Below are positions 1 through 60,541 of a stretch of DNA of 64,000 nt, piece by piece. The translations under genes and the position numbers were made by a program. The DNA is taken from NCBI GenBank assembly GCA_028717245.1, contig JAQUOD010000001.1:21514-85513 (forward strand), in the 5' to 3' direction. The notes beneath the pieces were generated by a model that ran no database searches, was not told where the DNA came from, and worked only from the letters and a program-made list of their open reading frames with translations. Within the stretch, counting starts at the first letter, position 1. The number at the start of each line of letters is the position of its first letter. The DNA is from Candidatus Omnitrophota bacterium (lineage in GTDB: Bacteria > Omnitrophota > Gorgyraeia > Gygaellales > Profunditerraquicolaceae).

Positions 1-806
1 ATGGTTTACCTGTGGTCATCCGGCTGCTTGACCCGCCTTTGCATGAGTTTGTCCCCCGCGAGCAGGCGAAATTAGAGCAGCTTGCCCGGGATTTAAATAT
101 CACTATGCAAGAACTCTCCCGGAGGGCCGACGCCCTGCATGAATCTAATCCCATGATGGGCCACAGGGGTGTGCGTTTAGGCGTTACTTATCCGGAAGTA
201 AGTGAAATGCAGATCCGGGCTATTTTCGAAGCCGCCGCAGAATTACTTAAGGAAGGCAAAAAACCCTATCCTGAAATAATGGTGCCGGTAGTCTGCGATG
301 TCAAAGAACTAAACGATCAGCTAGCCATTGCCAAGAAAATTTATCAGGAGGTTTTGAGCAAGTATAACCTTAAAAAAATCAGGCATATGTTCGGCACGAT
401 GATTGAGATTCCGCGCGCCTCCATTGTCGCGGATAAATTAGCTCAAGTAGCCGAGTTTTTCTCATTCGGCACCAATGATATGACCCAGATGGGTTTTGGT
501 TTTTCGCGCGATGATATCGGCGGTTTCCTGCCGGAATATATCAAGAAGGGTATACTTCCCGAGGATCCTTTCCAGAGCATTGACCAGGAGGGGATCGGGG
601 AATTAATTAAGATCGGCATTGAGCGCGGCCGCAAAACACGCAAGGATTTAGAAGTAGGCATCTGCGGAGAGCACGGCGGCGAACCGCGTTCAGTAGAATT
701 CTGCCATCGCGTAGGCATGGATTACGTAAGTTGTTCGCCTTTTCGGGTCCCTATTGCAACGTTAGCGGCAGCGCAGGCCGCGTTGAAAGAAAAAAATACG
801 AGATAG
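1..806 (+). CDS. ppdK: Pyruvate,phosphate dikinase, C-terminal PEP-utilising domain (5'-truncated by window edge)
   Basis: Reading frame open from base 1; LLDPPLHEFVP, GTNDMTQ and CGEHGGEP motifs typical of PPDK/PEP-utiliser TIM-barrel domain. Confidence 0.8.
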   Translation, partial: GLPVVIRLLDPPLHEFVPREQAKLEQLARDLNITMQELSRRADALHESNPMMGHRGVRLGVTYPEVSEMQIRAIFEAAAELLKEGKKPYPEIMVPVVCDVKELNDQLAIAKKIYQEVLSKYNLKKIRHMFGTMIEIPRASIVADKLAQVAEFFSFGTNDMTQMGFGFSRDDIGGFLPEYIKKGILPEDPFQSIDQEGIGELIKIGIERGRKTRKDLEVGICGEHGGEPRSVEFCHRVGMDYVSCSPFRVPIATLAAAQAALKEKNTR

Positions 807-813
807 TATCAAA

Positions 814-880
814 GTGTCATGTATCAAAGTATCAATGTCTTAAAGTTTTTCTTTGACACTCTGACACTTGACACTCTGAC
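814..880. repeat. Long imperfect palindrome built from GTATCAAAG/CTTTGATAC-type 9-10 bp units around a TTTTT(C) centre; copy A of 3
   Basis: Same architecture at 11748-11810 and 60471-60541, all intergenic. Confidence 0.7.
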
Positions 881-5942: not shown

Positions 5943-7517
5943 ATGAGTAAACGCTTAATCTTGATTCTGGCTCTCGCGTTTGTAGTCGGCATCACTTTTG
6001 CCGCATACGCCGAAGTCCAGAATGTGAAAGTAAGCGGTGACATTACCGTTTCAGCAGTTGGCCGTGATAACTATGATTTAGCCAAATCTCTATCTGGAAA
6101 TGCGATAATTAATTCTAATTTCGAGGATAAGGATAGAGACATTCTCTCTATTACCAGAGTGCGCGTGGATGCTGATTTAACGGATAATGTTTCTGCTACA
6201 GTAAGATTACTGAATGAAAGACCGTGGAATGGTGAAAGCAGATCTGAAGGCCAAGCCAACAGGAACATCGGCTTGACTGCTTCAAACACTGCTGCTGAAG
6301 CCAATGAAATAGACCTGGATTTAGCCTATGTTACCTTAAAAGAGTTCCTTTATTCGCCTCTTTCCTTGTCCATCGGCCGTCAGGAACTCCATTTTGGCAA
6401 TGACCTGATTGTGGGTGACCCGGATACCAATGGTTATTCTCTTCGCACTGCCCTATCCGAAGGCGATTTAAGCGCCCGCAAATCTTTTGATGCCCTGCGC
6501 GCTACCTTAGATTATAATCCGATAGTAGTGGATTTAGTCTATGCCAGGACAGAAGCAGGCGCGGCTAATCTGCACGCTAATACTGACCTTGCCGGTATCA
6601 ATGCCAGCTATGCCTTGAACAACAATACAACCATTGAGGGTTTTTTCTTCTCTAAAATGAAGGGAAGCAATACCCCGGCAGTCTATAACGTTGATGCAGC
6701 TGACAACACTGGTTGGACCGGAGCTGCCGTTGGCGCAGGCCTTGACAACCAAAATTATAAGGATAGGTCAGATATAGTCAATACCCTTGGCGTGCGCGCA
6801 GTGGATAAGACTGTAAAGAACCTTACCCTTGATGGTCAGATAGCCTGGCAGTTTGGTAGGTACAATCCCAAGTTTGACCCCAATGCCAGATACGATGCTG
6901 CTAGCTTTGTGAAGGCACAAACTGTTAGCCGTAATGCCTGGGCTGCCCAGTTAATGGGAAGCTATGATTTGAAAGATATAGCTATGCTTTCCAAATATAG
7001 CCCCAGCATCAGCGCTTCTTACACCTATCTTTCCGGTGCAGACAGAGATCAGACTACTAAGAGATCGTATAAAGGTTGGGATCCCATGTTTGAAAACCAG
7101 ACTATCGGTCAAGTCATGAATGGTATTTTTGCCGATACTAACATGCATAAGGCGGGCTTATCTGCTAAGGCCAAGCTCACTGATGATATCGGAGCAAAAC
7201 TTGATTATGTAGGCGCCTGGTTTGCCAAGAGTTATCCCGGTGGTGATAATCACAGGAAAGCTATCTTGTCCGGTTATGCTGCTGCTAGCGGAACTGCAGG
7301 TGACAGCGGTAGGCAGTTCTATTTGTTGGATGGCAACTATATCGGCTCAGAAGTAGACGCCACCTTAACCTATGATTATACCGAAGACGTGCAATTCTCT
7401 CTCTTAGGTGGTGTTTTCTTTGTCGGTAAGAATATCCGTGATGCTGACCATATCGCTACCAAAGATAATAAAGCTAATGCTGCCGAGTTAATCGGTTCAA
7501 TGAAGGTTACCTTCTAA
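5943..7517 (+). CDS. Outer-membrane beta-barrel protein (porin/alginate-export-like), probably highly expressed
   Basis: Signal peptide with A-Y-A cleavage, alternating amphipathic strands, C-terminal aromatic F; strong promoter upstream and intrinsic terminator at 7546-7580. Confidence 0.65.
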   Translation: MSKRLILILALAFVVGITFAAYAEVQNVKVSGDITVSAVGRDNYDLAKSLSGNAIINSNFEDKDRDILSITRVRVDADLTDNVSATVRLLNERPWNGESRSEGQANRNIGLTASNTAAEANEIDLDLAYVTLKEFLYSPLSLSIGRQELHFGNDLIVGDPDTNGYSLRTALSEGDLSARKSFDALRATLDYNPIVVDLVYARTEAGAANLHANTDLAGINASYALNNNTTIEGFFFSKMKGSNTPAVYNVDAADNTGWTGAAVGAGLDNQNYKDRSDIVNTLGVRAVDKTVKNLTLDGQIAWQFGRYNPKFDPNARYDAASFVKAQTVSRNAWAAQLMGSYDLKDIAMLSKYSPSISASYTYLSGADRDQTTKRSYKGWDPMFENQTIGQVMNGIFADTNMHKAGLSAKAKLTDDIGAKLDYVGAWFAKSYPGGDNHRKAILSGYAAASGTAGDSGRQFYLLDGNYIGSEVDATLTYDYTEDVQFSLLGGVFFVGKNIRDADHIATKDNKANAAELIGSMKVTF

Positions 7518-7615: not shown

Positions 7616-9166
7616 ATGCTCTATTTAGCCTTCATCTTCCACATGCACCAACCCTATTATAAAAACCTCCTTACCCAGGAGACAGACCTACCCTGGGTGC
7701 GCCTACACGGCACCAAGGATTATCTGGATATGGTCAAGATTCTGGAGCAATATCCGCTCATCCATCAGACCTTTAACCTGGTGCCGTCTTTGGGTGAGCA
7801 GATAGAAGATTATGCCAACAAGAACATAAAAGATAAGTTTTTAGAACTTTCTTATAGGCCCGCGGCAAAATTGACCTCCGAAGAAAAGAAATTTATTTTA
7901 GAGAAATTTTTTATGATTAATAAGGAACACGTGGTTTCTGTTCATCCGCGCTATTACCAGCTCTACCTGCAGAAAGAGGGGGGGAGGGAGTTTAGCCAGC
8001 AGGATTATCTGGATTTACAGGTCTGGTTTAATTTAGCCTGGATCGATCCTTATTTTAGGCAGAACTTTCCGGAATTAAAAAATATCGTCTCTAAAGGCAG
8101 GTTCTTTAGCGAAGAAGAAAAACAGGTGGTTTTAGAAAAACAAATAGAGATATTAGCGGATATCCTGCCAACCTATAAAGAATTTATGGCCAAAGGCCAG
8201 ATTGAGGTTACGCTAAACCCTTATTACCATCCCATATTGCCTTTACTTTATAATACTAAAATCGGCAAGGAGGCAAATTGCCGCACCAGCCTGCCGCATT
8301 TGAATTTTGCTTATCCTGATGACGCCCGCGCGCAAATAGATGAGGCAGTGAAGTTTTACCAAGAGAGATTCGGGATTCCGCCGCAGGGCATGTGGCCGTC
8401 TGAAGAAGCGGTAAGCGAACACATCTTGCCGCTTATCATTCAGGCAGGCATAAAATGGATAGTTACCGACGAGGGGCTATTATTCAAGTCCCTGAAGAAA
8501 AAAAAACGGGGCACCCGGCTTTTATACCAGCCGCATTTTATAAAAAGAAAAGACGGCAATCTAAATATTATTTTCCGTGACCGTAATCTTTCGGATTTAA
8601 TCGGGTTTGTTTATTACCGTTTAAAGACCGAAGATGCGGTTTCCGACCTCATGCAACACTTGCAAAATATTGCCGGCGCTTTTAAGGATGAAGATATTTT
8701 GGTAACTATAGCGATGGATGGTGAGAATGCCTGGGAGTATTATCCCAACGACGGGCATGATTTCTTAGGCCTTCTTTATCAAAGATTATCCGAATCTAAA
8801 ATTATCAAGACAGTTACTATCGCCGAATATTTAAAGACGCACACGGCGAATTTAGAAATCAAGCGTTTAGCCAGCGGTTCGTGGATATTTTCCGATTTTG
8901 GCAAGTGGATCGGTAATCCTTCCAAGAATAGGGCCTGGGAGTATCTGGCTAAGGCAAGAAAAGAACTGGAGGATTCTAAATCTCAGATCCCGGATTCCAA
9001 GCTAGAATTAGCGTATAAGCAGATGTATATTGCCGAGGGTAGCGACTGGTTTTGGTGGTATGGCGAGGACCAGGCTGATTTTGACCGGCTCTTTCGCATG
9101 CACCTGCGCAACTTTTATAATATCATCGACAAACCCATCCCCGAATACTTAAACTCGCCGATATAA
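7616..9166 (+). CDS. Glycoside hydrolase family 57 alpha-glucan enzyme (amylase/branching/4-alpha-glucanotransferase type)
   Basis: N-terminal FHMHQPYY signature of GH57, length ~516 aa. Confidence 0.8.
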   Translation: MLYLAFIFHMHQPYYKNLLTQETDLPWVRLHGTKDYLDMVKILEQYPLIHQTFNLVPSLGEQIEDYANKNIKDKFLELSYRPAAKLTSEEKKFILEKFFMINKEHVVSVHPRYYQLYLQKEGGREFSQQDYLDLQVWFNLAWIDPYFRQNFPELKNIVSKGRFFSEEEKQVVLEKQIEILADILPTYKEFMAKGQIEVTLNPYYHPILPLLYNTKIGKEANCRTSLPHLNFAYPDDARAQIDEAVKFYQERFGIPPQGMWPSEEAVSEHILPLIIQAGIKWIVTDEGLLFKSLKKKKRGTRLLYQPHFIKRKDGNLNIIFRDRNLSDLIGFVYYRLKTEDAVSDLMQHLQNIAGAFKDEDILVTIAMDGENAWEYYPNDGHDFLGLLYQRLSESKIIKTVTIAEYLKTHTANLEIKRLASGSWIFSDFGKWIGNPSKNRAWEYLAKARKELEDSKSQIPDSKLELAYKQMYIAEGSDWFWWYGEDQADFDRLFRMHLRNFYNIIDKPIPEYLNSPI

Positions 9167-9591
9167 TTTAACTCGATTTCCGTCTTTCGCTTCCGCGTGC
9201 TGAAAATCTTTGCCGTGCACTACGGTTTACTCGTTGCTTCCGCCAGTTGACTTACGCAAGGCAGGCAGCACTCCAGCAACTCGTAAATCCTTGTGCACTC
9301 CTGCCAAAGATTTTCTTATGCACGCTTCAGCAAAAGCCGGAAATCTTATGTACCGCGTAAATTGTAAATTAATCTTACGGTTTAGTGGGTGGCAAGGCTG
9401 TTTTCGAACAGCATGTAGTTTGTGCGAACGGCCAGGGTTCACCCGCTAACTAGAGATATCGGTGAGAGTGAGCACAAACTCCAAGCGAGAAATTCCTCGG
9501 TGGGGAATTTCGAGCGGTGCTGTGAGAAAATAGCCTTGACAGGACCCACTACTTCGGAAGTAAGAATAATTTACAGCGTTATAGCTTAAAA

Positions 9592-9626
9592 CTATTGACA
9601 GACAAGGGGTTTTGTGTTATAAAAAA
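9592..9626 (+). promoter_or_regulatory. Sigma-70-type promoter TTGACA-N17(gacaaggggttttgtgt)-TATAAA driving membrane-protein/ParA-CBM48/K-rich operon
   Basis: Consensus -35, extended TGn -10; shared AAGGGGTTnTGTG spacer with 5733 promoter. Confidence 0.5.
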
Positions 9627-9636
9627 AGACTTAGAG

Positions 9637-10194
9637 ATGAAGAAAAAAGACATTTACGAACACCTGGCGCATATCTACTTGGATGCCTCTTCAAAGAAAC
9701 GAAGAAGTATACACACCCATCCCCAATTTTTCCCAAGAATATTCCTGGCGAGTTTTATCATAATCGGCGTAGGTTTTCTCTTTGCCTATATAAACCGTAA
9801 CCGCAACCTTAAATCCGATACGGCGCTTGTGCTTTGTTTTGACCCTGTGAAGGTGAACTTTCATTTTGATCCCGCTAAAAAAGAAATATATTCCATCAAT
9901 TTAAATAAGCTGAACCTGGCGAAATTCAAGACACTGGCGTTCGCCGTCAAAAGGACCGATTACCGCGATAACCTTTCGTTACGGATAGAGCTTACTAATA
10001 TATTCCGGGAAAAATCCGAGCTGTATATAAAAAATATACCGCATAGATGGCAGGATTATAAGATTAACTTATCCGAATTTAAAAATATAAGCGCTTGGTC
10101 TGAAATGGTGAATCTTTCTTTTATTGTTGAAGAATGGAACGCAAAAGGAAAAAAGGGAATAGTTTATCTGGATAATATAAGGTTTCTACGCTAA
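9637..10194 (+). CDS. Membrane-anchored hypothetical protein (start moved to MKKKDIYEH; listed ORF 9595 overlaps the promoter)
   Basis: Single N-terminal TM helix; first gene after TTGACA-N17-TATAAA promoter at 9592-9625. Confidence 0.5.
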   Translation: MKKKDIYEHLAHIYLDASSKKRRSIHTHPQFFPRIFLASFIIIGVGFLFAYINRNRNLKSDTALVLCFDPVKVNFHFDPAKKEIYSINLNKLNLAKFKTLAFAVKRTDYRDNLSLRIELTNIFREKSELYIKNIPHRWQDYKINLSEFKNISAWSEMVNLSFIVEEWNAKGKKGIVYLDNIRFLR

Positions 10195-10213
10195 GAAAAA
10201 GGAGGCAAGGCCT

Positions 10214-11308
10214 ATGCGGATTATCTCTATCACTAACCAGAAGGGCGGCTGCGGAAAGACTACCACAGCCATAAATTTAGCGGCATCTTTGGCCAGTAAC
10301 AATAGAAGGGTTTTGTTGGTAGATTTAGACCCGCAGGCGCATGCGACTTCAGGTTTAAACATCAAAACAAGCTTGACTATTTACAATGTCCTCTCCAAAT
10401 TGACTAATAAAAAAGCAGGGCTGAAAGATATCATCCAGGCCGTAGGGGTTAATTTTGATATCGCCCCATCGGGCATTGTCTTAAGCACCTTAGAGCAGGA
10501 ATTAGCCGGTGAAATCGGCAGGGAATCCAGGCTCTGGGAGGTCTTGACTAATTTCAAGGGTAATTACGATTATATTTTAATTGACTGTCCTCCGAACCTG
10601 GGGATTCTGACTATAAATGCCATCCGGGCTACCCACGAAATCATCATCCCTGTTGAGGCGAGCAGGTTTTCCTTAGAGGGCCTAAGCCAGCTCAGTGATA
10701 TTATGAATCTGGTGAAAGAGCGCCTTAATCATAGCGTGGACTTTAAGATCCTGGTTACTAACTTTGATTCGCGCCTGAGGCATTCTTTTAAGATGCTGGA
10801 TAAAATAAAATCCACTTTCAAGGATAAGCTTTTTAGCAATATCATCCACGTCAATGTAAAACTTAAGGAAGCGCAGAATGAGGGTACTCATATCATCAAT
10901 TACGATAAGTATTGCCGCGGGACAAAAGATTATTTCAGCCTTTCGCGGGAGATCATTACCCAGGAAACAACACCTTTAAATCCGAAACCCCAGGTGAATC
11001 TAAAAGAAAGGATGAAGGAAGTTTTGAAGGAACAGATGCCCAAGTTTACCGAGATCGTTTTCTCCGTGTTCGCCCCTGAGGCCAAAGAGGTCTATGTGGC
11101 TGGAGATTTTAATAACTGGAAAATGGACGAGAATAGCCGTATGGTTAATCGCGAGGGCACCTGGAGCAGAAAAATATTCCTTAATTCCGGCCGTTATCAT
11201 TACCGTTTTGTTATAGACGGCAAGTGGGTTGAGGATTTCAATAACCCTACACGGGAAACGAATCCGTACGGGGAGTTAAATTCCCTTTTAGAGATAAAGT
11301 CCTGGTAA
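10214..11308 (+). CDS. ParA/MinD-family deviant Walker-A ATPase fused to C-terminal AMPK-beta/CBM48 glycogen-binding domain
   Basis: KGGCGKTT deviant Walker A and ParA-like body for ~260 aa; C-terminal 85 aa match the AMPK1_CBM pattern KEVYVAGDFNNW..GRYHYRFVIDGKW..NP. Confidence 0.8.
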   Translation: MRIISITNQKGGCGKTTTAINLAASLASNNRRVLLVDLDPQAHATSGLNIKTSLTIYNVLSKLTNKKAGLKDIIQAVGVNFDIAPSGIVLSTLEQELAGEIGRESRLWEVLTNFKGNYDYILIDCPPNLGILTINAIRATHEIIIPVEASRFSLEGLSQLSDIMNLVKERLNHSVDFKILVTNFDSRLRHSFKMLDKIKSTFKDKLFSNIIHVNVKLKEAQNEGTHIINYDKYCRGTKDYFSLSREIITQETTPLNPKPQVNLKERMKEVLKEQMPKFTEIVFSVFAPEAKEVYVAGDFNNWKMDENSRMVNREGTWSRKIFLNSGRYHYRFVIDGKWVEDFNNPTRETNPYGELNSLLEIKSW

Positions 11309-11341
11309 GGCAGGAAAAGCGTATAAAAAGGGGGTGTAAAA

Positions 11342-11737
11342 ATGGCGAAGAAGAAGAAAAAGAAAGCAACGGTGAAAGGAAAAGTTACGAAGAAAAAGGT
11401 ACTGAAAAGAAAGCCTGCAAAGAAAAGGATTCTTAAAAAGAAGGCCTCTAAGAAAAAATCCGTTTCAAAAGTAAAAGCGGTTAAGAAGCTGAAAGAGAAT
11501 GTTATCGGAGAAATAACGCATTATTTTCCTCATGTCAGGGCAGCGGTAATAAAACTAAAGGCGCCTTTAGCAACAGGCGATGCCATTAAAATTAAAGGCC
11601 ATACTACCGATTTACAGCAGGTAGTTACTTCTATGCAGATTGACCATGTAGTAGTAAGTGATGCCAAAAAGGGCCAGGAGATCGGCCTTTTAGTGGAATC
11701 CCGCGTCAGGCAGCACGATGTAGTCTATAAACTATAA
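11342..11737 (+). CDS. Lysine-rich (histone H1-like) N-terminal tail protein with C-terminal small beta-barrel domain (EF-Tu domain-2-like)
   Basis: First 55 residues ~60% K/R; C-terminal VIGEITHYFPHVRAAVIKLKAPLATGDAIKIKG resembles translation-factor domain-2 barrel. Confidence 0.55.
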   Translation: MAKKKKKKATVKGKVTKKKVLKRKPAKKRILKKKASKKKSVSKVKAVKKLKENVIGEITHYFPHVRAAVIKLKAPLATGDAIKIKGHTTDLQQVVTSMQIDHVVVSDAKKGQEIGLLVESRVRQHDVVYKL

Positions 11738-11747
11738 AGCGGAAATG

Positions 11748-11810
11748 GTATCAAAGTATCAATGTATCATAGTATCAAGGTTTTTTCTTTGACACCTGAC
11801 ACTTTGATAC
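11748..11810. repeat. GTATCAAAG-arm palindromic element, copy B
   Basis: GGTATCAAAGTATCAATGTATCATAGTATCAAGG-TTTTTT-CTTTGACACCTGACACTTTGATAC. Confidence 0.7.
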
Positions 11811-11844
11811 AGACGTAATAATACAAGGAGGAGGGAGGGGGGTC

Positions 11845-12027
11845 ATGCGGCTTATAGAAATTGAAAAGAAGGCCAGGGGCCTGGGGGTAAAGGATACCTG
11901 GAAATATTCCAAGAAAGATTTGATTAAGACAATTCAGCGTAAGGAAGGCAATTTTGACTGTTTCGCTACGGCTAAGCGTGGTTGCGATCAATTAGCCTGC
12001 TGTTGGAGAGCCGATTGCTTAAAGTAA
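11845..12027 (+). CDS. Small protein: Rho-N/SAP-like N-terminal helix-hairpin plus C-terminal 5-Cys cluster
   Basis: LIEIEKKARGLGVKDTWKYSKKDLIKTIQ resembles Rho_N domain; tail CFATAKRGCDQLACCWRADC. Confidence 0.45.
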   Translation: MRLIEIEKKARGLGVKDTWKYSKKDLIKTIQRKEGNFDCFATAKRGCDQLACCWRADCLK

Positions 12028-12049: not shown

Positions 12050-12238
12050 ATGGCTAAATATAAGTGTCAGATTTGCGACAGGGAGATTGATGATTTCGCC
12101 AGCCTCGCGCATATAAAGGCAGAAGAATATCTCTTGGCTTTGATCCAGCGTGACCATCCTGAATGGAAAGAACGCGGCAAGACCTGCCATAGATGCGTAG
12201 AGTATTATCGTAAACTGGTAAAAGAAACCGAAATTTAA
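12050..12238 (+). CDS. Small zinc-ribbon protein (CxxC ... CxxC)
   Basis: CQIC at N-terminus and CHRC near C-terminus. Confidence 0.45.
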   Translation: MAKYKCQICDREIDDFASLAHIKAEEYLLALIQRDHPEWKERGKTCHRCVEYYRKLVKETEI

Positions 12239-12392: not shown

Positions 12393-12701
12393 ATGAAGAG
12401 GCGCGGAAGGCCTAAGAAATACAGGATAGTGCGGGTTGACCCCAGAATAAACCAGTTTAGCCCAAGGGGCAGGCCAGGCCGGCCGGATGAGGTAGATTTA
12501 ACTATGGATGAATTTGAGGCAGTGCGCCTGGCGGATTACCTGGGTTTAAGCCAGAAAGAGGCAGCTAAATCCATGCATATCTCCCAGCAGACCTTTAGCC
12601 GTATCCTGAAAAGGGCGCGCAAGTCCTTAGCCAGCGGCCTGATAGGCGGCAAAATTATCAAGATCCAGGGAGGAACCTACATTATTAGTTCAGCCAAATA
12701 A
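12393..12701 (+). CDS. DUF134/UPF0251 family putative DNA-binding protein
   Basis: MKRRGRPKK..RGRPGRP..LTMDEFEAVRLADYLGLSQKEAAKSMHISQQTFSRILKRARKSLA matches DUF134 pattern with sigma-70 region-4-like HTH. Confidence 0.7.
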   Translation: MKRRGRPKKYRIVRVDPRINQFSPRGRPGRPDEVDLTMDEFEAVRLADYLGLSQKEAAKSMHISQQTFSRILKRARKSLASGLIGGKIIKIQGGTYIISSAK

Positions 12702-49936: not shown

Positions 49937-50725
49937 TTATCTCTCTCTTGGGACCAAGACCACATATGGCTTGGAATTAATGGGGTTATTGTTGACTACT
50001 ACAGTTGTCTTATATACTGCTTCTATATTTTGATAAGTCAATACATCGCGGGGAGAACCTTCTTTAAAAATTTTCCCTTCATTCATCAGGACTATCCGGT
50101 TACAATATTCACTGGCTAAGTTTAAGTCATGCAGGACCATAATAATGGTAAGATTATCCTGGCGGTTTAATTTCCGTAATAAATCCAATATCTGTATCTG
50201 ATGGCCTATATCCAGGTGTGAAGTAGGCTCATCTAAGAATAGTAAAAGCGGCTGCTGGGCGAGGGCCTTGGCGATAATCACGCGCTGGCGTTCCCCGGAA
50301 CTTAACTCGTCTATCATTTTTTCTTTTAAATGCAGGGTGTCGGTCATTGCCATTGCCTTCTCGGCAAAAAAATAGTCTTTCTTGGTTTCGGCCTCAAGCC
50401 TCTTAAGGTGCGGGGTCCTTCCCATTAACACGATCTCAAATACGCTAAAGGGAAAATTGACCACGGTATCCTGAGCCACAAAGGCAACAGACTTCGCGAA
50501 CTCTTTCATCGCCATTGAGGCGATATCCCTGCCATGAAAAATAATATTTCCTTTATTGGGTGAAAGTATCTTGCTGGCCAGGCGTAGGAGGGTAGTCTTA
50601 CCGGAGCCATTTGGCCCGATAATCCCCATAAAATCCCCGTGTTTTATATCCAAAGAGATATCCCTTACGATCGTCTCTTTACCGTATCCTCCGCTTAGGT
50701 TATATGTCTTTAGCAAATTACTCAT
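49937..50725 (-). CDS. ABC transporter ATP-binding protein, FecE/BtuD-like (start moved to MSNLLKTYNL, 4-nt overlap with permease)
   Basis: Walker A GPNGSGKTT, signature LSGGERQRV, Walker B LLFLDEPT. Confidence 0.85.
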   Translation of the reverse strand: MSNLLKTYNLSGGYGKETIVRDISLDIKHGDFMGIIGPNGSGKTTLLRLASKILSPNKGNIIFHGRDIASMAMKEFAKSVAFVAQDTVVNFPFSVFEIVLMGRTPHLKRLEAETKKDYFFAEKAMAMTDTLHLKEKMIDELSSGERQRVIIAKALAQQPLLLFLDEPTSHLDIGHQIQILDLLRKLNRQDNLTIIMVLHDLNLASEYCNRIVLMNEGKIFKEGSPRDVLTYQNIEAVYKTTVVVNNNPINSKPYVVLVPRER

Positions 50726-51684
50726 TTTATCCCCTGTTTTACTTTTAACAGGATTATAAATACCGGCGCTCCCAAAAATGCTGTTATGACTCCTATAGGT
50801 ATTTCTAAAGGAGGGAATATTGTGCGCGAGAGTATGTCGCAGGTTATCATGAATATCGCAGCTGCAAGACATGAGACAGGAATAAGGGTTTTATGGTTTG
50901 GGCCTATCAAGAGCCGCATCATATGCGGGACTATCAGCCCCACAAACCCGATTATCCCGCAGACAGAAACAAGCCCGGCGGTGATTAGAGAGACTATCAA
51001 TATAAGGATTTTCTTTACGGCTTCTATGTCTATACCTAAGTGCATCGCTTCTTCTTCGCCAAGGCTTATGGCGTTTAAATCCTGGGAGAATATATAAACC
51101 GCGGCTACCCCAAGCATAACCACGGTACAGATTATTATAAGGAGCGTCCAGTCGTAGACCTGCAGACTTCCCCAGAGCCACCAGGTTATGCCGTGTAACG
51201 CCTCATTCGAACTGGCAGAGATAAGGAATACGATTATAGCTGAAACCGCCACGGAGACAATAACCCCGGAGAGTATTAACGACTGCGGTAATATTTTATT
51301 ATTCTGTTTAGCTAAATTATAAACCAAAACAATGCTTAAGACTGCGCCTATGAATGCTGCCAGAGGCAGGTATATCCCCGATACGCCTAATATGACCGCT
51401 ATTACCGCGCCTAACCCCGCGCCGCTTGAAGTCCCCAATAAGTATGGTTCAGCTAAGGAATTCTTTAAAATTGCCTGCAGGGCTATGCCTGAAACACTCA
51501 AGCCCGCCCCCGCGACTGCCGCAAGGAATATGCGCAAAAGCCTCAAGTTCAATATGGGCCTGTTTCCTTCAAGTAGCAATTCAGAAAAAGGAATATTCAC
51601 CGAGCCGATAAGGGCCCCCGCCAAAATAGCGAATATTAATAATAAAAATAAAAACAGTATTTTATTCCTGAGCTTTCCCGTCAT
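50722..51684 (-). CDS. ABC transporter permease, FecCD/BtuC family
   Basis: ~10 TM helices, FecCD pattern. Confidence 0.85.
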   Translation of the reverse strand: MTGKLRNKILFLFLLLIFAILAGALIGSVNIPFSELLLEGNRPILNLRLLRIFLAAVAGAGLSVSGIALQAILKNSLAEPYLLGTSSGAGLGAVIAVILGVSGIYLPLAAFIGAVLSIVLVYNLAKQNNKILPQSLILSGVIVSVAVSAIIVFLISASSNEALHGITWWLWGSLQVYDWTLLIIICTVVMLGVAAVYIFSQDLNAISLGEEEAMHLGIDIEAVKKILILIVSLITAGLVSVCGIIGFVGLIVPHMMRLLIGPNHKTLIPVSCLAAAIFMITCDILSRTIFPPLEIPIGVITAFLGAPVFIILLKVKQGIK

Positions 51685-52559
51685 GGATAAAACCTCTCGT
51701 GAAGTTCCCTAAGCCCCTCTGTTATGCGCGGGCCCGGGCGCAACAATAAATCAGAATTAATGTCGTTATATATCCTATTATTTCTAACTGCCATTATATT
51801 CCCCCAGCTAAAACGCTTACTCAATGATATTCGCGAGCCTTCTTCGCCCATATAAGCCAAAATGATACATTCAGGGTTACGTTTAATCACCTCTTCCGGG
51901 CTAAATATACTGTATGCCCTTTTTGTATCCTTTGCTATGTTTATCCCTCCTGCCTTGGTAATCAACTCATCAACAAAAGAACCATCTCCCGCGGTAGTCA
52001 GCGGGTCATGCCATATCTCAATAAATACCCTTGGCTTTTTATTTGCGGGTATTGCTGTGACCTTTAAATTTATCTCTTTAATCTCATCCTGCATAGCTTT
52101 GATTAATGCCTTTGCTTCTTTTGGCTTGCCGGTAATCCTGCCTATCTCCATAATAGAGCTAAAGAGCCCGTCCGTGTTCTGCGGGTCAGACACATAGACA
52201 TTTAAATTTAGGCGCCTCAACTCAATGACTACAGATGCCTGCTCAAGCCCCGTACAAAAAATATAGTCAGGCTTTAAAGAAATGATTTTCTCTATATTGG
52301 GATAACTGAATGTGCCGACTTTTTCCTTGCCTTTTGTTTTTGGGGGATAATTACAGTATAAGCTTACCCCTACGATTTCTTCATCTAACCCTAAGGAGAA
52401 TAAGATTTCAGTAGTTGAAGGGGCCAGCGAAATATACCGGGCGGTCTTTTTAGGGACTGTCCCCGCCATGGCTATTTCTGTAAATCCCAAGGGGACTGTC
52501 CCTGATAATAAGCTAATTATTAATAATAGTTTCTTCATATAACAAAAAACCCGCCACAA
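51681..52559 (-). CDS. Periplasmic substrate-binding protein, BtuF-like (cobalamin); start uncertain because paired palindromic repeat overlaps the 5' end
   Basis: RYISLAPSTTEILFSLGL..and class III PBP pattern. Confidence 0.75.
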   Translation of the reverse strand: MWRVFCYMKKLLLIISLLSGTVPLGFTEIAMAGTVPKKTARYISLAPSTTEILFSLGLDEEIVGVSLYCNYPPKTKGKEKVGTFSYPNIEKIISLKPDYIFCTGLEQASVVIELRRLNLNVYVSDPQNTDGLFSSIMEIGRITGKPKEAKALIKAMQDEIKEINLKVTAIPANKKPRVFIEIWHDPLTTAGDGSFVDELITKAGGINIAKDTKRAYSIFSPEEVIKRNPECIILAYMGEEGSRISLSKRFSWGNIMAVRNNRIYNDINSDLLLRPGPRITEGLRELHERFYP

Positions 52560-52562
52560 AAT

Positions 52563-52798
52563 TCGGCGGGTTGCACCCTGCTTTCCTACTTGACCCTTAT
52601 CCGCGAGGTTCTTCTACGCCCTTTAAAAGGCCGGGTTTCGAAGCAACTATTATATAGGTAAGGTCTTCTGACTTAAGGATTGGCCTACTTGCTCTACCTT
52701 CCCGGCTTTTAAGCCAGTGGTATTTTAGAGTTTTCGTACCCTTATACAGCAGCGGGACTGTGGCCGCTTTTACGGCCTTCCCTCACCCATACAACTAT
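52563..52798 (-). ncRNA. Cobalamin riboswitch with intrinsic-terminator expression platform
   Basis: Minus-strand read: GGGTGAGGGAAGGCCGTAAAAGCGGCCACAGTCCCGCTGCTGTA, ACCACTGGC (B12-box-like), CCGGGAAGG, then AACCCGCCGAATTTTGTGGCGGGTTTTTTGTT terminator just before btuF-like start. Confidence 0.7.
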
Positions 52799-52940
52799 CT
52801 AATTTGTAAAAAGAACTCTTACTAATTTTCTATCTAGGGCTATATTAATGCAAATTTATTTTTATGTCAAGAGAAAGTTTCATTAATGAAACTTTCTCTT
52901 GATTCTTAAGGCAATGTGCCGAAGAATCTAATATAATTCT

Positions 52941-60470: not shown

Positions 60471-60541
60471 GTGTCAAGGTATCATGTATCAAGGTATCAA
60501 AGTTTTTTCTTTGATACTCTGACACTTTGATACTTTGATAC
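60471..60541. repeat. GTATCAAAG-arm palindromic element, copy C (between mdh and IDH-like genes)
   Basis: GTGTCAAGGTATCATGTATCAAGGTATCAAAG-TTTTTT-CTTTGATACTCTGACACTTTGATACTTTGATAC. Confidence 0.7.

Follow-up and report, generated by a model that had tools for sequence, protein, structure and literature searches.

Carboxysomes are positioned by McdA/McdB, a system built on a ParA-type ATPase. Storage granules can be attached to the chromosome by other means: PhaM of Ralstonia eutropha tethers the PHB granule to the nucleoid through a Lys-rich, histone-H1-like tail, and the granules are distributed at division. In Vibrio, the bitopic polar landmark HubP combines a periplasmic, glycan-binding LysM domain with recruitment of ParA-family ATPases through its cytoplasmic part. 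The usual view of bacterial glycogen is that of a store distributed passively.

Here, we analyzed a locus of an Omnitrophota bacterium (GCA_028717245.1) in which a ParA ATPase is fused to a glycogen-binding type of domain (CBM48), within a window of 64,000 nucleotides, i.e., the whole stretch of DNA studied. Searches of the full-text literature (ParA, glycogen, CBM48, AMPK1_CBM, positioning, and DUF4912) returned no description of such a fusion, in agreement with the original prediction that this is not an established system type, and a main Omnitrophota genomics paper makes no mention of glycogen. We tentatively read the locus as a ParA-type cargo system whose cargo would be intracellular alpha-glucan (glycogen), a reading to which we give somewhat less than an even chance. 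Tethering or segregation of glycogen on the nucleoid would be a plausible outcome.

The ParA-CBM48 fusion protein

The fusion gene (positions 10214 to 11308, + strand; 364 aa; Pfam and NCBIfam) encodes a Soj-type ATPase part (residues 1 to 252, nt 10214 to 10969), a linker (residues 253 to 279, nt 10970 to 11050) with the conserved helix-like segment KERMKEVLKEQMPKF inside it, and a CBM48/AMPK-beta module (residues 280 to 364, nt 11051 to 11305). The fusion is genuine: both halves, first named from the letters alone, scored above the Pfam cut-offs in HMM searches. AAA_31 matched residues 1 to 176 (E = 6e-54, 183 bits versus a cut-off of 27), and CbiA also matched. At the other end, AMPK1_CBM matched residues 288 to 362 (E = 3.8e-14, 53.1 bits versus 26.8) and CBM_48 residues 277 to 336 (36.4 bits versus 22.4). 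The strings on which the assignment had relied, KGGCGKTT in the ATPase and KEVYVAGDFNNW...GRYHYRFVIDGKW in the C-terminal module, are present in the translation. The best solved relative of the fusion is the chromosomal ParA of Myxococcus xanthus (8RAY; E = 6e-55, 44% identity), and its C terminus matched the CBM structures of AMPK beta1 and beta2 with E values of 2e-9 to 1e-7.

The alignment of 70 members of the fusion family revealed that the signature lysine K10 of the deviant Walker A motif (NQKGGCGKTT), its K15 and T16, and D39 are invariant (70/70), while D124 of Walker B is conserved in at least 95% of members. For DNA binding we took positions R189 and R218 of Bacillus subtilis Soj for comparison. 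R187 of the fusion, an arginine in 69 of the 70 members, presumably corresponds to Soj R189; the Soj numbering used fits the known positions G12, K16, and D40. K216 aligns with R238 of M. xanthus ParA and is lysine or arginine in 38/39 Omnitrophota and in 19/31 distant members. The substitution R238E abolishes DNA binding of M. xanthus ParA (PMC12462528). Judging from the alignment, the fusion thus retains both basic positions that Soj/ParA uses for non-specific DNA binding. This activity may not be universal in the family, since the equivalent of K216 is alanine or serine in about one-third of the distant members.

The CBM48 module is conserved as well. We take the carbohydrate contacts of AMPK beta1 to be W100, K126, W133, and N150, in a numbering that agrees with the alignment to 1Z0N; they correspond to W302, R331, W338, and N356 of the fusion, respectively. 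The pair of sugar-stacking tryptophans, W302 and W338, is present in 70/70 members, R331 is arginine or lysine in 59/70, N356 is asparagine or aspartate, and G353 is invariant. The module therefore keeps its carbohydrate-binding residues, and it is predicted to bind glycogen.

The closeness to a chromosomal ParA, together with the JGI name "chromosome partitioning protein," could suggest that the protein is simply a chromosome- or plasmid-partition ParA with an acquired accessory domain. We consider this extremely unlikely. A six-frame search for ParB box II (GERRxRA), covering the window and the flanks of 80 loci (1.19 Mb), gave no genuine match, the 14 loose pattern matches being spurious (off-frame, in high-GC open reading frames), so that by the presence of an adjacent ParB or parS the fusion does not appear to belong to a ParABS partition system. 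Moreover, all NCBIfam partition models scored far below their cut-offs, and the clade has signature residues of its own (C13 and Q95) and partners other than ParB.

Other identities were rejected. The fusion is not MinD: its C terminus is a CBM48, and the minD models of NCBIfam gave 58 to 68 bits with cut-offs above 200; neither minE nor minC was recognizable by eye among the open reading frames of the window. Anti-phage defense found no backing in PADLOC, which returned for the ATPase only weak P-loop matches (E = 3e-6 and 3e-4) to models of candidate systems and nothing for the membrane protein or the Lys-rich protein encoded beside it. A second "ParA" in one locus (L014) is a BY-kinase-type protein of an exopolysaccharide cluster and not a canonical ParA.

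The operon and the candidate partners of the ATPase

Positions 9595 to 11737 of the + strand hold a promoter followed by the genes of a membrane protein, the fusion, and a Lys-rich protein. The dedicated promoter proposed at 9592 is real and conserved, with its exact site at 9595 to 9623. It is of the sigma-70 type (+ strand; TTGACA at 9595 to 9600, a spacing of 17 nt, and TATAAA at 9618 to 9623), with a TG one base ahead of the -10 hexamer, and a consensus promoter scan missed it because the scan demands a T at the last -10 position. Most Omnitrophota loci that we examined have the block TTGACA...TTTTGTGTTATAAA 5' of their ortholog of the first gene, and this block is the sole part of the 470-bp intergenic gap that aligns with the closest locus (L001). 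A noncoding RNA or small gene in the rest of the gap (9167 to 9594) was sought and rejected: Rfam gave no match there, and nothing beyond the promoter could be aligned to that locus.

The three genes proposed as an operon do exist on the + strand, but the first starts at ATG 9637 and not at TTG 9595, where "TTG ACA" serves as the -35 box. A stretch of 13 nt separates the end of the -10 box from this ATG, and the mRNA would therefore be nearly leaderless. The fusion gene follows after a gap of 19 nt, with a strong Shine-Dalgarno sequence (AAGGAGG) 8 nt 5' of its start, and the Lys-rich gene is probably cotranscribed with it.

The first gene (9637 to 10194, + strand) encodes a bitopic membrane protein of 185 aa. 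It matches NCBI PHC54_01775 with 100% identity, and lengths of 185 to 188 aa prevail among its listed homologs. It consists of a conserved cytoplasmic peptide, MKKKDIYEHLAHIYLDASSKK (residues 1 to 21, nt 9637 to 9699), a transmembrane helix (residues 35 to 53, nt 9739 to 9795), and a CBM-like beta-sandwich (residues 62 to 184, nt 9820 to 10188) that probably lies outside the cytoplasm, facing the periplasm. The N-terminal 18 residues are nearly invariant, the Omnitrophota form of the peptide being KKDIYEHLAxIYLDAS, and residues 4 to 18 of the protein of the window are predicted to be helical (AF2). If glycogen is the cargo, two features of this protein sit uneasily with it: a membrane-anchored stimulator would suit simple release more obviously than positioning, and a purely cytoplasmic glycogen model offers no role for the predicted outward-facing domain.

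In every lineage examined, the fusion adjoins a candidate partner with a short conserved N-terminal amphipathic peptide. Outside Omnitrophota, where the partners include a MinD-like pseudo-ATPase, this peptide is the ParB-like LGRGLEDVSHLFLS, and its core is preceded by a ParB-type LGRGL. The core E-(D/E/H)-(V/L)-(S/A)-x-(L/I/V)-(F/Y)-(L/F)-(S/D) was confined to the N termini of genes adjacent to the fusion, with more than 50 matches versus about 1 expected by chance from our own residue-frequency estimate. In one case, the peptide is borne by the DUF4912 protein of a glycogen cluster (L050). Since the near-invariant N terminus of the membrane protein resembles the ParB-like peptide, a likeness that spans nine residues only, this protein is likely a better candidate for the ParA partner than the Lys-rich protein. 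On the side of the ATPase, most of the hydrophobics that form the ParB-peptide pocket are kept (L129, I131, I134, L166, and L171 take the places of L150, L152, L155, L187, and L192 in M. xanthus ParA). One pocket position deviates, V116 of M. xanthus ParA being replaced by a glutamine that is invariant in the fusion family, and this weighs against the reading with glycogen as cargo.

The third gene (11342 to 11737, + strand) encodes a Lys-rich protein of 131 aa. Its N-terminal third had been described as almost pure lysine; with 26 K and 2 R in 52 residues, it is 54% basic. These residues 1 to 52 form a disordered tail in the AF2 model (pLDDT below 50 for residues 1 to 50), and residues 53 to 130 form a beta-barrel (pLDDT of about 94) of the type found in EF-Tu domain II and in the C-terminal part of U32 peptidases, and not a histone or HU fold. 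Foldseek matched it to 4HE5 (TM score of 0.89) and to EF-Tu domain II. Neither Pfam nor NCBIfam gave a match for this protein, while its 2,104 homologs are named "translation elongation factor-like protein" or "putative protease" in their sources. The gene lies 3' of the fusion in 37 of the 43 Omnitrophota loci, often with one or two genes in between, and is not adjacent to it in more distant members of the family. Because of its barrel type, of the genes inserted in most loci, and of this lack of adjacency, the protein, first likened to ParA partners by its basic tail, is demoted as a candidate partner, though not rejected. It may add nucleic-acid binding, which our model does not need.

The palindrome noted at 11748 belongs to a hairpin element (11746 to 11812) composed of four GTRTCA units and their inverses. 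The window has three copies of it (803 to 880, 11746 to 11812, and 60471 to 60541), and it is absent from the orthologous loci, where the next gene closely trails the Lys-rich gene. It is thus a dispersed repeat outside the system, and we rejected it as a centromere or operator.

The nature of the membrane partner bears on an alternative that we consider unlikely, in which the fusion would be a glycogen sensor or switch: alpha-glucan binding would alter the ATPase/DNA-binding cycle, which would regulate the division site, the nucleoid, or a membrane partner, and glycogen would not be moved. An outward-facing glycan-binding-like domain, as predicted, fits transmembrane signaling, and the CBM is of the AMPK-beta subtype. 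MipZ and MinD, both relatives of ParA/MinD ATPases, act as spatial regulators. However, no regulated target was found at any locus, the recurring neighbors being glycogen enzymes and DUF4912, and the linker length ranges across the family from 14 to over 300 residues, which is easier to reconcile with a tether than with an allosteric sensor.

Extent of the family and its glycogen-related neighbors

The fusion family is large and apparently undescribed. Among the top 150 representatives of clusters at 50% identity, 135 carry ParA together with CBM48, and 118 of these 135 have the cysteine of KGGCGKT. According to record titles and cluster names, the hosts belong to about ten phylum-level groups, all uncultivated, and no cultured host was found among ten distant cluster representatives.

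The recurrence of the fusion and of its surroundings, on which the original prediction depended, was borne out: in the 43 Omnitrophota loci, the Lys-rich gene is conserved as given above, and a GH57 gene lies upstream in 27 (also in L048). In the window, this GH57 alpha-glucan hydrolase (7616 to 9166, + strand; Pfam Glyco_hydro_57, E = 4.7e-64) lacks a signal peptide and is closest to the amylopullulanase of Aquifex aeolicus, in the family of PDB 8ZYI/9IHT (E = 2.5e-82), an enzyme that hydrolyzes glycogen, pullulan, and starch (PMC12106739). It had been placed next to the fusion; the link with alpha-glucan does recur, but the 470-bp gap and the membrane-protein gene lie in between, and GH57 forms a separate transcription unit. 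It is also the only adjacent glucan gene, and a degradative one, and no glgA, glgC, or glgP was recognizable by eye in the 64-kb window, which weighs against glycogen as the cargo in this genome.

Farther upstream, an AlgE/porin-like outer-membrane beta-barrel is encoded (5943 to 7517, + strand; Pfam Alginate_exp, E = 3.5e-16, with weak matches to NCBIfam porin models), and its gene remains 5' of the membrane-protein/ParA pair even in loci without GH57. Such an arrangement could be imagined to serve envelope polysaccharide assembly or export in a BcsQ-like manner, the bitopic CBM-like protein and the barrel exporting alpha-glucan while CBM48 holds the nascent chain. We regard this as very unlikely. 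The operon encodes no glycosyltransferase, synthase, or inner-membrane transporter, and its promoter is separate from the porin and GH57 genes. Members outside Omnitrophota keep the fusion with neither the porin nor the membrane protein. The ATPase also resembles chromosomal ParA (E = 6e-55) much more than it does BcsQ, whose model (TIGR03371) gave 66.5 bits versus a cut-off of 157.85.

Alpha-glucan genes recur beside the fusion in separate lineages, and linkage to genes of the presumed cargo is found in the 27 Omnitrophota loci and in three others. In L084, the fusion, its partner, a 205-aa protein, GH57, DUF4912, and a GH57 with BE_C follow one another on one strand. In L050, the fusion, its partner, a NucS-like protein, and further genes precede DUF4912 and a GH57 with BE_C. 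In L074, the fusion and its partners lie beside a standalone CBM48, a GH57 with BE_C, DUF4912, and a GT4/GT5 synthase-like gene. This clustering with branching enzyme and DUF4912 (and, in L074, with a synthase-like glycosyltransferase) would also suit a granule-biogenesis scaffold working without the nucleoid, in which an ATP-dependent dimer, with its two CBM48 modules, would cross-link or nucleate alpha-glucan and recruit enzymes, setting granule number and size. The DUF4912 protein with the partner peptide points in the same direction, and plant PTST proteins (CBM48 plus a coiled coil) direct starch-granule initiation. Nevertheless, the strongly conserved Soj DNA-binding arginine and lysine are hard to explain without a role for DNA, and the membrane partner of Omnitrophota would be left unexplained, which makes this scaffold quite unlikely in our view.

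Under the reading that we prefer, with glycogen as the cargo of a ParA-type system, the ATP-bound fusion would dimerize and bind the nucleoid, and the dimer would offer two CBM48 modules on flexible linkers, attaching glycogen particles to the chromosome. The N-terminal peptide of the partner would dock in the ParB-peptide pocket at the dimer interface and stimulate ATP hydrolysis, upon which the dimer would fall apart and release the DNA. Through repetition of this cycle, granules would be spread, spaced, or retained along the nucleoid, such that both daughter cells inherit granules and these do not coalesce, as with McdA/McdB and carboxysomes. In Omnitrophota, where the stimulating peptide would sit on a bitopic inner-membrane protein, release or anchoring may be controlled from the envelope. 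The proposal in its fullest form is a dedicated ATP-driven machine that partitions or positions glycogen granules, the first for a polysaccharide store and the first with its cargo module in the ParA itself, spread over some ten mostly uncultivated phyla and governed from the envelope in Omnitrophota by a bitopic protein whose glycan-binding-like domain would lie in the periplasm; as a whole, we hold it to be doubtful.

If it were true, many bacteria would actively place or partition their glycogen, a polysaccharide granule would join the cargos of ParA/MinD ATPases, and in Omnitrophota what the cell meets outside would be coupled to where glycogen is kept inside. The fusion would be a natural case of an ATPase and its cargo adaptor in one polypeptide, with which the dependence of the diffusion ratchet on a separate adaptor can be tested. 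The short candidate activating peptide (LGRGLEDVSHLFLS or KKDIYEHLAxIYLDAS) and a few point mutants make the hypothesis testable in vitro without culturing. Three unannotated families, namely DUF4912, the membrane protein of Omnitrophota, and the MinD-like pseudo-ATPase found as a partner elsewhere, would likewise gain a first functional context.

Comparison with known systems

The fusion shares its fold and sequence family with chromosomal ParA/Soj proteins (M. xanthus ParA, 8RAY; Thermus thermophilus Soj, 1WCV), including the deviant Walker A, the catalytic aspartate, Walker B, the basic positions for DNA binding, and most hydrophobic residues of the ParB pocket. It differs from them by the lack of an adjacent ParB, the C-terminal CBM48 on a flexible linker, the cysteine in KGGCGKT, the glutamine at the V116 position, and its candidate partners, a membrane protein or a MinD-like pseudo-ATPase.

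As in McdA/McdB, PpfA/TlpT, ParC/ParP, and PomXYZ, an orphan ParA, whose cargo is cytoplasmic and not DNA, is encoded beside the genes of that cargo, with a partner bearing an N-terminal peptide; for the fusion, both the cargo and the activating role of the peptide are presumed. In those systems, a separate protein on the cargo serves as the adaptor, whereas the fusion has the cargo module in the ATPase; its presumed activator is membrane-anchored in this lineage, and its cargo would be a polysaccharide granule, a cargo of none of those systems. By carrying its own cargo domain, the ParA breaks with the usual layout, where the stimulator is on the cargo, and this weighs against the cargo reading.

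The CBM48 is of the subtype found in AMPK beta, SEX4, LSF1, and PTST/FLO6, and shares with them the Trp-Trp platform and the contacts through Lys/Arg and Asn. PTST proteins likewise rely on a CBM48 for bringing a non-enzymatic partner to alpha-glucan. Unlike these proteins, the fusion is bacterial, and its CBM48 sits on a P-loop ATPase, not on a kinase scaffold, a phosphatase, or a coiled coil. With PhaM it would share the concept of attaching a storage granule to the nucleoid, and the neighboring Lys-rich protein recalls the PhaM tail; PhaM, however, is no ATPase and is unrelated in sequence. Finally, the Omnitrophota partner resembles HubP in being bitopic with a predicted periplasmic glycan-binding-like domain, but it is unrelated to HubP in sequence and domain type, and its cytoplasmic part is just a peptide of 18 to 21 residues.

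Architecture and distribution of the fusion

The fusion gene (window 10214-11308, + strand; 364 codons) encodes a ParA ATPase followed by a carbohydrate-binding module. In its N-terminal half, the Pfam model AAA_31 matches residues 1-176 (E 6e-54), and CbiA also matches. The fusion is claimed by no curated family, since the NCBIfam models for partition proteins, MinD, BcsQ, and tyrosine kinases scored far under their cut-offs in every case. Among solved structures, Myxococcus xanthus chromosomal ParA comes closest to this half (8RAY; E 6e-55, 44% identity), followed by the Soj proteins of Thermus and Helicobacter. Residue conservation was assessed by aligning 70 family members drawn from 80 genome loci. 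No variation is seen at the signature lysine K10, at K15 and T16 of Walker A, or at D39, and the Walker B residue D124 is conserved in at least 95% of the members. R187 is an arginine in 69 of 70 and corresponds to R189 of Bacillus subtilis Soj, in a numbering that reproduces the known G12, K16, and D40. K216 aligns with R238 of M. xanthus ParA, where the change R238E abolishes DNA binding (PMC12462528); a basic residue (Lys or Arg) occupies this position in 38 of the 39 members from Omnitrophota and in 19 of the 31 distant ones. A granule scaffold independent of the nucleoid, a reading that we regard as quite unlikely, would leave the strong conservation of these basic residues hard to account for.

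The pocket that receives the ParB peptide keeps its hydrophobic residues (M. xanthus L150/L152/L155/L187/L192, here L129/I131/I134/L166/L171), and V116 of the M. xanthus pocket is replaced by a glutamine invariant in the family. Within 1.19 Mb of flanking sequence, we found no plausible open reading frame (ORF) with a ParB box II motif. The intact catalytic and DNA-binding residues, with no ParB nearby, lead us to describe the fusion as an orphan, catalytically competent, and probably DNA-binding ParA. An ordinary partition ParA would share the kinship with chromosomal ParA and Soj and would be expected to have a ParB; this reading seems extremely unlikely to us.

The C-terminal module matches AMPK1_CBM over residues 288-362 (53.1 bits; cut-off, 26.8) and CBM_48 (36.4 bits; cut-off, 22.4), so that profile models confirm both halves of the fusion of ParA with an AMPK-beta/CBM48 module proposed in the original prediction. 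The module aligns with the carbohydrate-binding modules of AMPK beta1 and beta2 (E 2e-9 to 1e-7), and its sugar-binding residues are intact: the stacking tryptophans W100 and W133 of beta1 correspond to W302 and W338, present in all 70 members, K126 to R331 (Arg or Lys in 59 of 70), and N150 to N356 (Asn or Asp across the family), preceded by the invariant glycine G353. Between the two halves, linker length ranges from 14 to 105 residues among the loci and reaches more than 300 in database representatives, a range compatible with a putative flexible tether. The kinship with AMPK beta would also agree with a glycogen-sensing switch, a role that we consider unlikely.

We searched 1.84 billion representatives at 50% identity, which also returned ordinary ParAs in bulk. 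With an HMM built from the family, CBM48 was present in 135 of the 150 best-scoring representatives, and 118 of these 135 had the unusual cysteine of KGGCGKT, a valine in canonical ParAs. The fusion family is a large, monophyletic-looking clade. The host groups named in the records are Omnitrophota, Planctomycetota/Phycisphaerae, Myxococcota, "delta proteobacterium," Rokubacteria, Auribacter, Eisenbacteria, Thermodesulfobacteriota, Glassbacteria, and Krumholzibacteriia. All named hosts are metagenome-assembled genomes, with no cultured host among the record titles and cluster names of the members found. One match of this search, P0361, is a protein of 1812 aa with 18 stretches matching the CBM48 part of the fusion.

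Operon and neighboring genes in Omnitrophota

A porin-like gene (5943-7517) and a GH57 gene (7616-9166) precede the fusion on the + strand. The fusion had been placed next to GH57; the latter is indeed upstream on the same strand, but a 470-bp gap and the membrane-protein gene intervene. This gene (185 aa; 100% identity to NCBI PHC54_01775) starts at ATG 9637, and the TTG at 9595 that opens a longer ORF lies within a -35 box. The dedicated promoter predicted at 9592 is present on the + strand as a near-consensus TTGACA (9595-9600), a 17-nt spacer, and TATAAA (9618-9623), with a TG one base ahead of the -10 hexamer. A matching block lies 5' of the orthologous gene in most Omnitrophota loci examined, and nothing else in the gap can be aligned with L001, the closest locus. 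Only 13 nt separate the end of the -10 box from the ATG, and 11-16 nt do so in most orthologous loci, so that the mRNA for the membrane protein probably has little or no leader. The fusion gene starts 19 nt after the membrane-protein gene, with the Shine-Dalgarno sequence AAGGAGG, and the Lys-rich gene (11342-11737, + strand; 131 codons; 100% identity to NCBI PHC54_01765) starts 33 nt after the fusion gene, with a G-rich one. The transcription unit excludes the GH57 and porin genes. Between GH57 and the promoter, the 430 bp at 9167-9594 contain no conserved ORF, have no Rfam match, and do not resemble the orthologous locus that is closest; in most related genomes, this interval is just a short gap.

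The gene order in Omnitrophota is porin, GH57 (not always), membrane protein, fusion, a DUF4870 membrane protein (not always), and Lys-rich protein. Each of the 42 loci that reach 51% identity and include upstream DNA has the membrane-protein gene immediately upstream of the fusion. GH57 is found in 27 of 43 loci, and the Lys-rich gene in 37 of 43. More distant Omnitrophota-like loci encode a 240-300-aa protein with the layout of the membrane protein (N-terminal motif, basic stretch, transmembrane helix, and beta domain).

The N-terminal third of the Lys-rich protein, described as almost pure lysine, is basic and Lys-rich, but Lys/Arg make up just 54% of residues 1-52, which are predicted to be disordered. 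In this protein, described as histone-H1-like, residues 53-130 form a barrel of another kind than the histone or HU fold, resembling domain II of EF-Tu and the C-terminal domain of a U32 peptidase (4HE5, TM 0.89); its homologues are named "translation elongation factor-like protein" by their sources. It may bind nucleic acid and is tied to the ATPase solely through synteny, within Omnitrophota. In many Omnitrophota loci it is followed by two Cys-rich proteins with no Pfam match (60 aa, 11845-12027; 62 aa, 12050-12238) and a DUF134 HTH protein (12393-12701), kept at 62-83% identity.

The large palindromic element noted at 11748 exists, but it is dispersed, with three copies in the window (803-880, 11746-11812, and 60471-60541), and is missing at orthologous positions in related genomes. 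It consists of four tandem GTRTCA (7-8-nt period), a T-rich loop, and three or four inverted TGAYAC. The predicted RNA hairpins are as strong as -18 to -38 kcal/mol, and for two of the three copies the - strand gives the better fold, with G-U pairs there in place of the A-C mismatches. Elsewhere in the window, a cobalamin riboswitch (52640-52805, - strand; Rfam RF00174, 81.7 bits) lies upstream of two - strand ORFs (51681-52559 and 50722-51684), whose N termini resemble, by eye, a cobalamin-transporter binding protein and permease, respectively.

Candidate partner peptide and linkage to alpha-glucan genes

The first 18 residues of the membrane protein, M(D/K)KKDIYEHLAxIYLDAS, are its most conserved part: 10 positions are invariant in 40 sequences whose overall identity is just 55-77%. 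Residues 4-18 are helical in the AF2 model. In members outside Omnitrophota, the genes after the fusion encode a MinD-like protein of ~300 aa and/or a NucS_C-like protein of ~230 aa. The former (L050:11128-12045, L074:4476-5462, L081:5053-5946, and L084:10772-11794) gives only a weak CbiA match; some members (L055 and L079) keep an intact Walker A, and others have a degenerate one. The MinD-like or NucS-like partners start with K(K/P)LGRGLEDVSHLFLS, in which a ParB-type LGRGL precedes a similar core; the peptide is LGRGLEEVSHLFLS in L084 and L050 and QEELAxIYFS in an intermediate Omnitrophota group. The common core, E-(D/E/H)-(V/L)-(S/A)-x-(L/I/V)-(F/Y)-(L/F)-(S/D), occurs more than 50 times among neighboring proteins, against ~1 expected by chance from our residue-frequency estimate. 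This is the pattern expected for a ParA-activating peptide, making it a candidate activator. We know of no nameable arrangement that matches a ParA with a pseudo-ATPase bearing a ParB-like peptide.

The linkage of the fusion to alpha-glucan genes is recurrent, since it adjoins glycogen genes in three separate lineages. L084 carries, on one strand, the fusion, the partner, a 205-aa protein, GH57, DUF4912, and GH57 with BE_C; in L050, DUF4912 and GH57 with BE_C come after the fusion and the same partners. In L074, the fusion is near a standalone CBM48, GH57 with BE_C, DUF4912, and a GT4/GT5 synthase-like gene. The standalone protein there (6337-6642, - strand; 101 aa) has a Lys-rich N terminus and a CBM48 close to that of the fusion, and a GH57 branching enzyme is adjacent. 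The core peptide is located at the N terminus of fusion-adjacent genes with one exception, a second L050 copy on a protein of the glycogen cluster: DUF4912, which starts with KKLGKGLEDISTLFLS, the same peptide as the ParA partner. This peptide and the position of the DUF4912 genes between GH57 genes in glycogen-type clusters (L050:13725-15608, L074:8249-9343 on the - strand, and L084:13832-14518) suggest that DUF4912 could be a glycogen-associated client of the ATPase. The GH57 of the window is closest to the amylopullulanase of Aquifex aeolicus, which hydrolyzes glycogen among other substrates (PMC12106739), and lacks a signal peptide.

The transmembrane helix of the membrane protein (residues 35-53; Kyte-Doolittle score, 2.25) is flanked by net charges of +5 on the N side and +2 on the C side, which favors a predicted topology with the N terminus inside. 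A BcsQ-like role in envelope polysaccharides would make use of this membrane-anchored protein and its predicted outward-facing CBM-like domain; the BcsQ model scored far under its cut-off, and we find this role highly improbable.

A possible role in glycogen positioning

The reading we prefer, tentatively and at somewhat short of an even chance for the model as a whole, is that ATP-bound fusion dimers would sit on the nucleoid and grip glycogen via their two CBM48 modules. The partner peptide would then trigger ATP hydrolysis and release, and repeated cycling would distribute or retain glycogen granules. Its weak points are that glycogen production by this organism is a presumption, that an activator anchored in the membrane is an odd arrangement, and that the outward-facing CBM-like domain has no role in it. 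Neither a ParA-CBM48 protein nor ParA-dependent glycogen positioning was described in the full-text literature searched, a source that leaves most subscription journals outside its coverage. Compared with the known cargo-positioning systems of the ParA/MinD type, the presumed cargo is new, the ATPase and the presumed cargo-binding module form one polypeptide, and the partner families are new.
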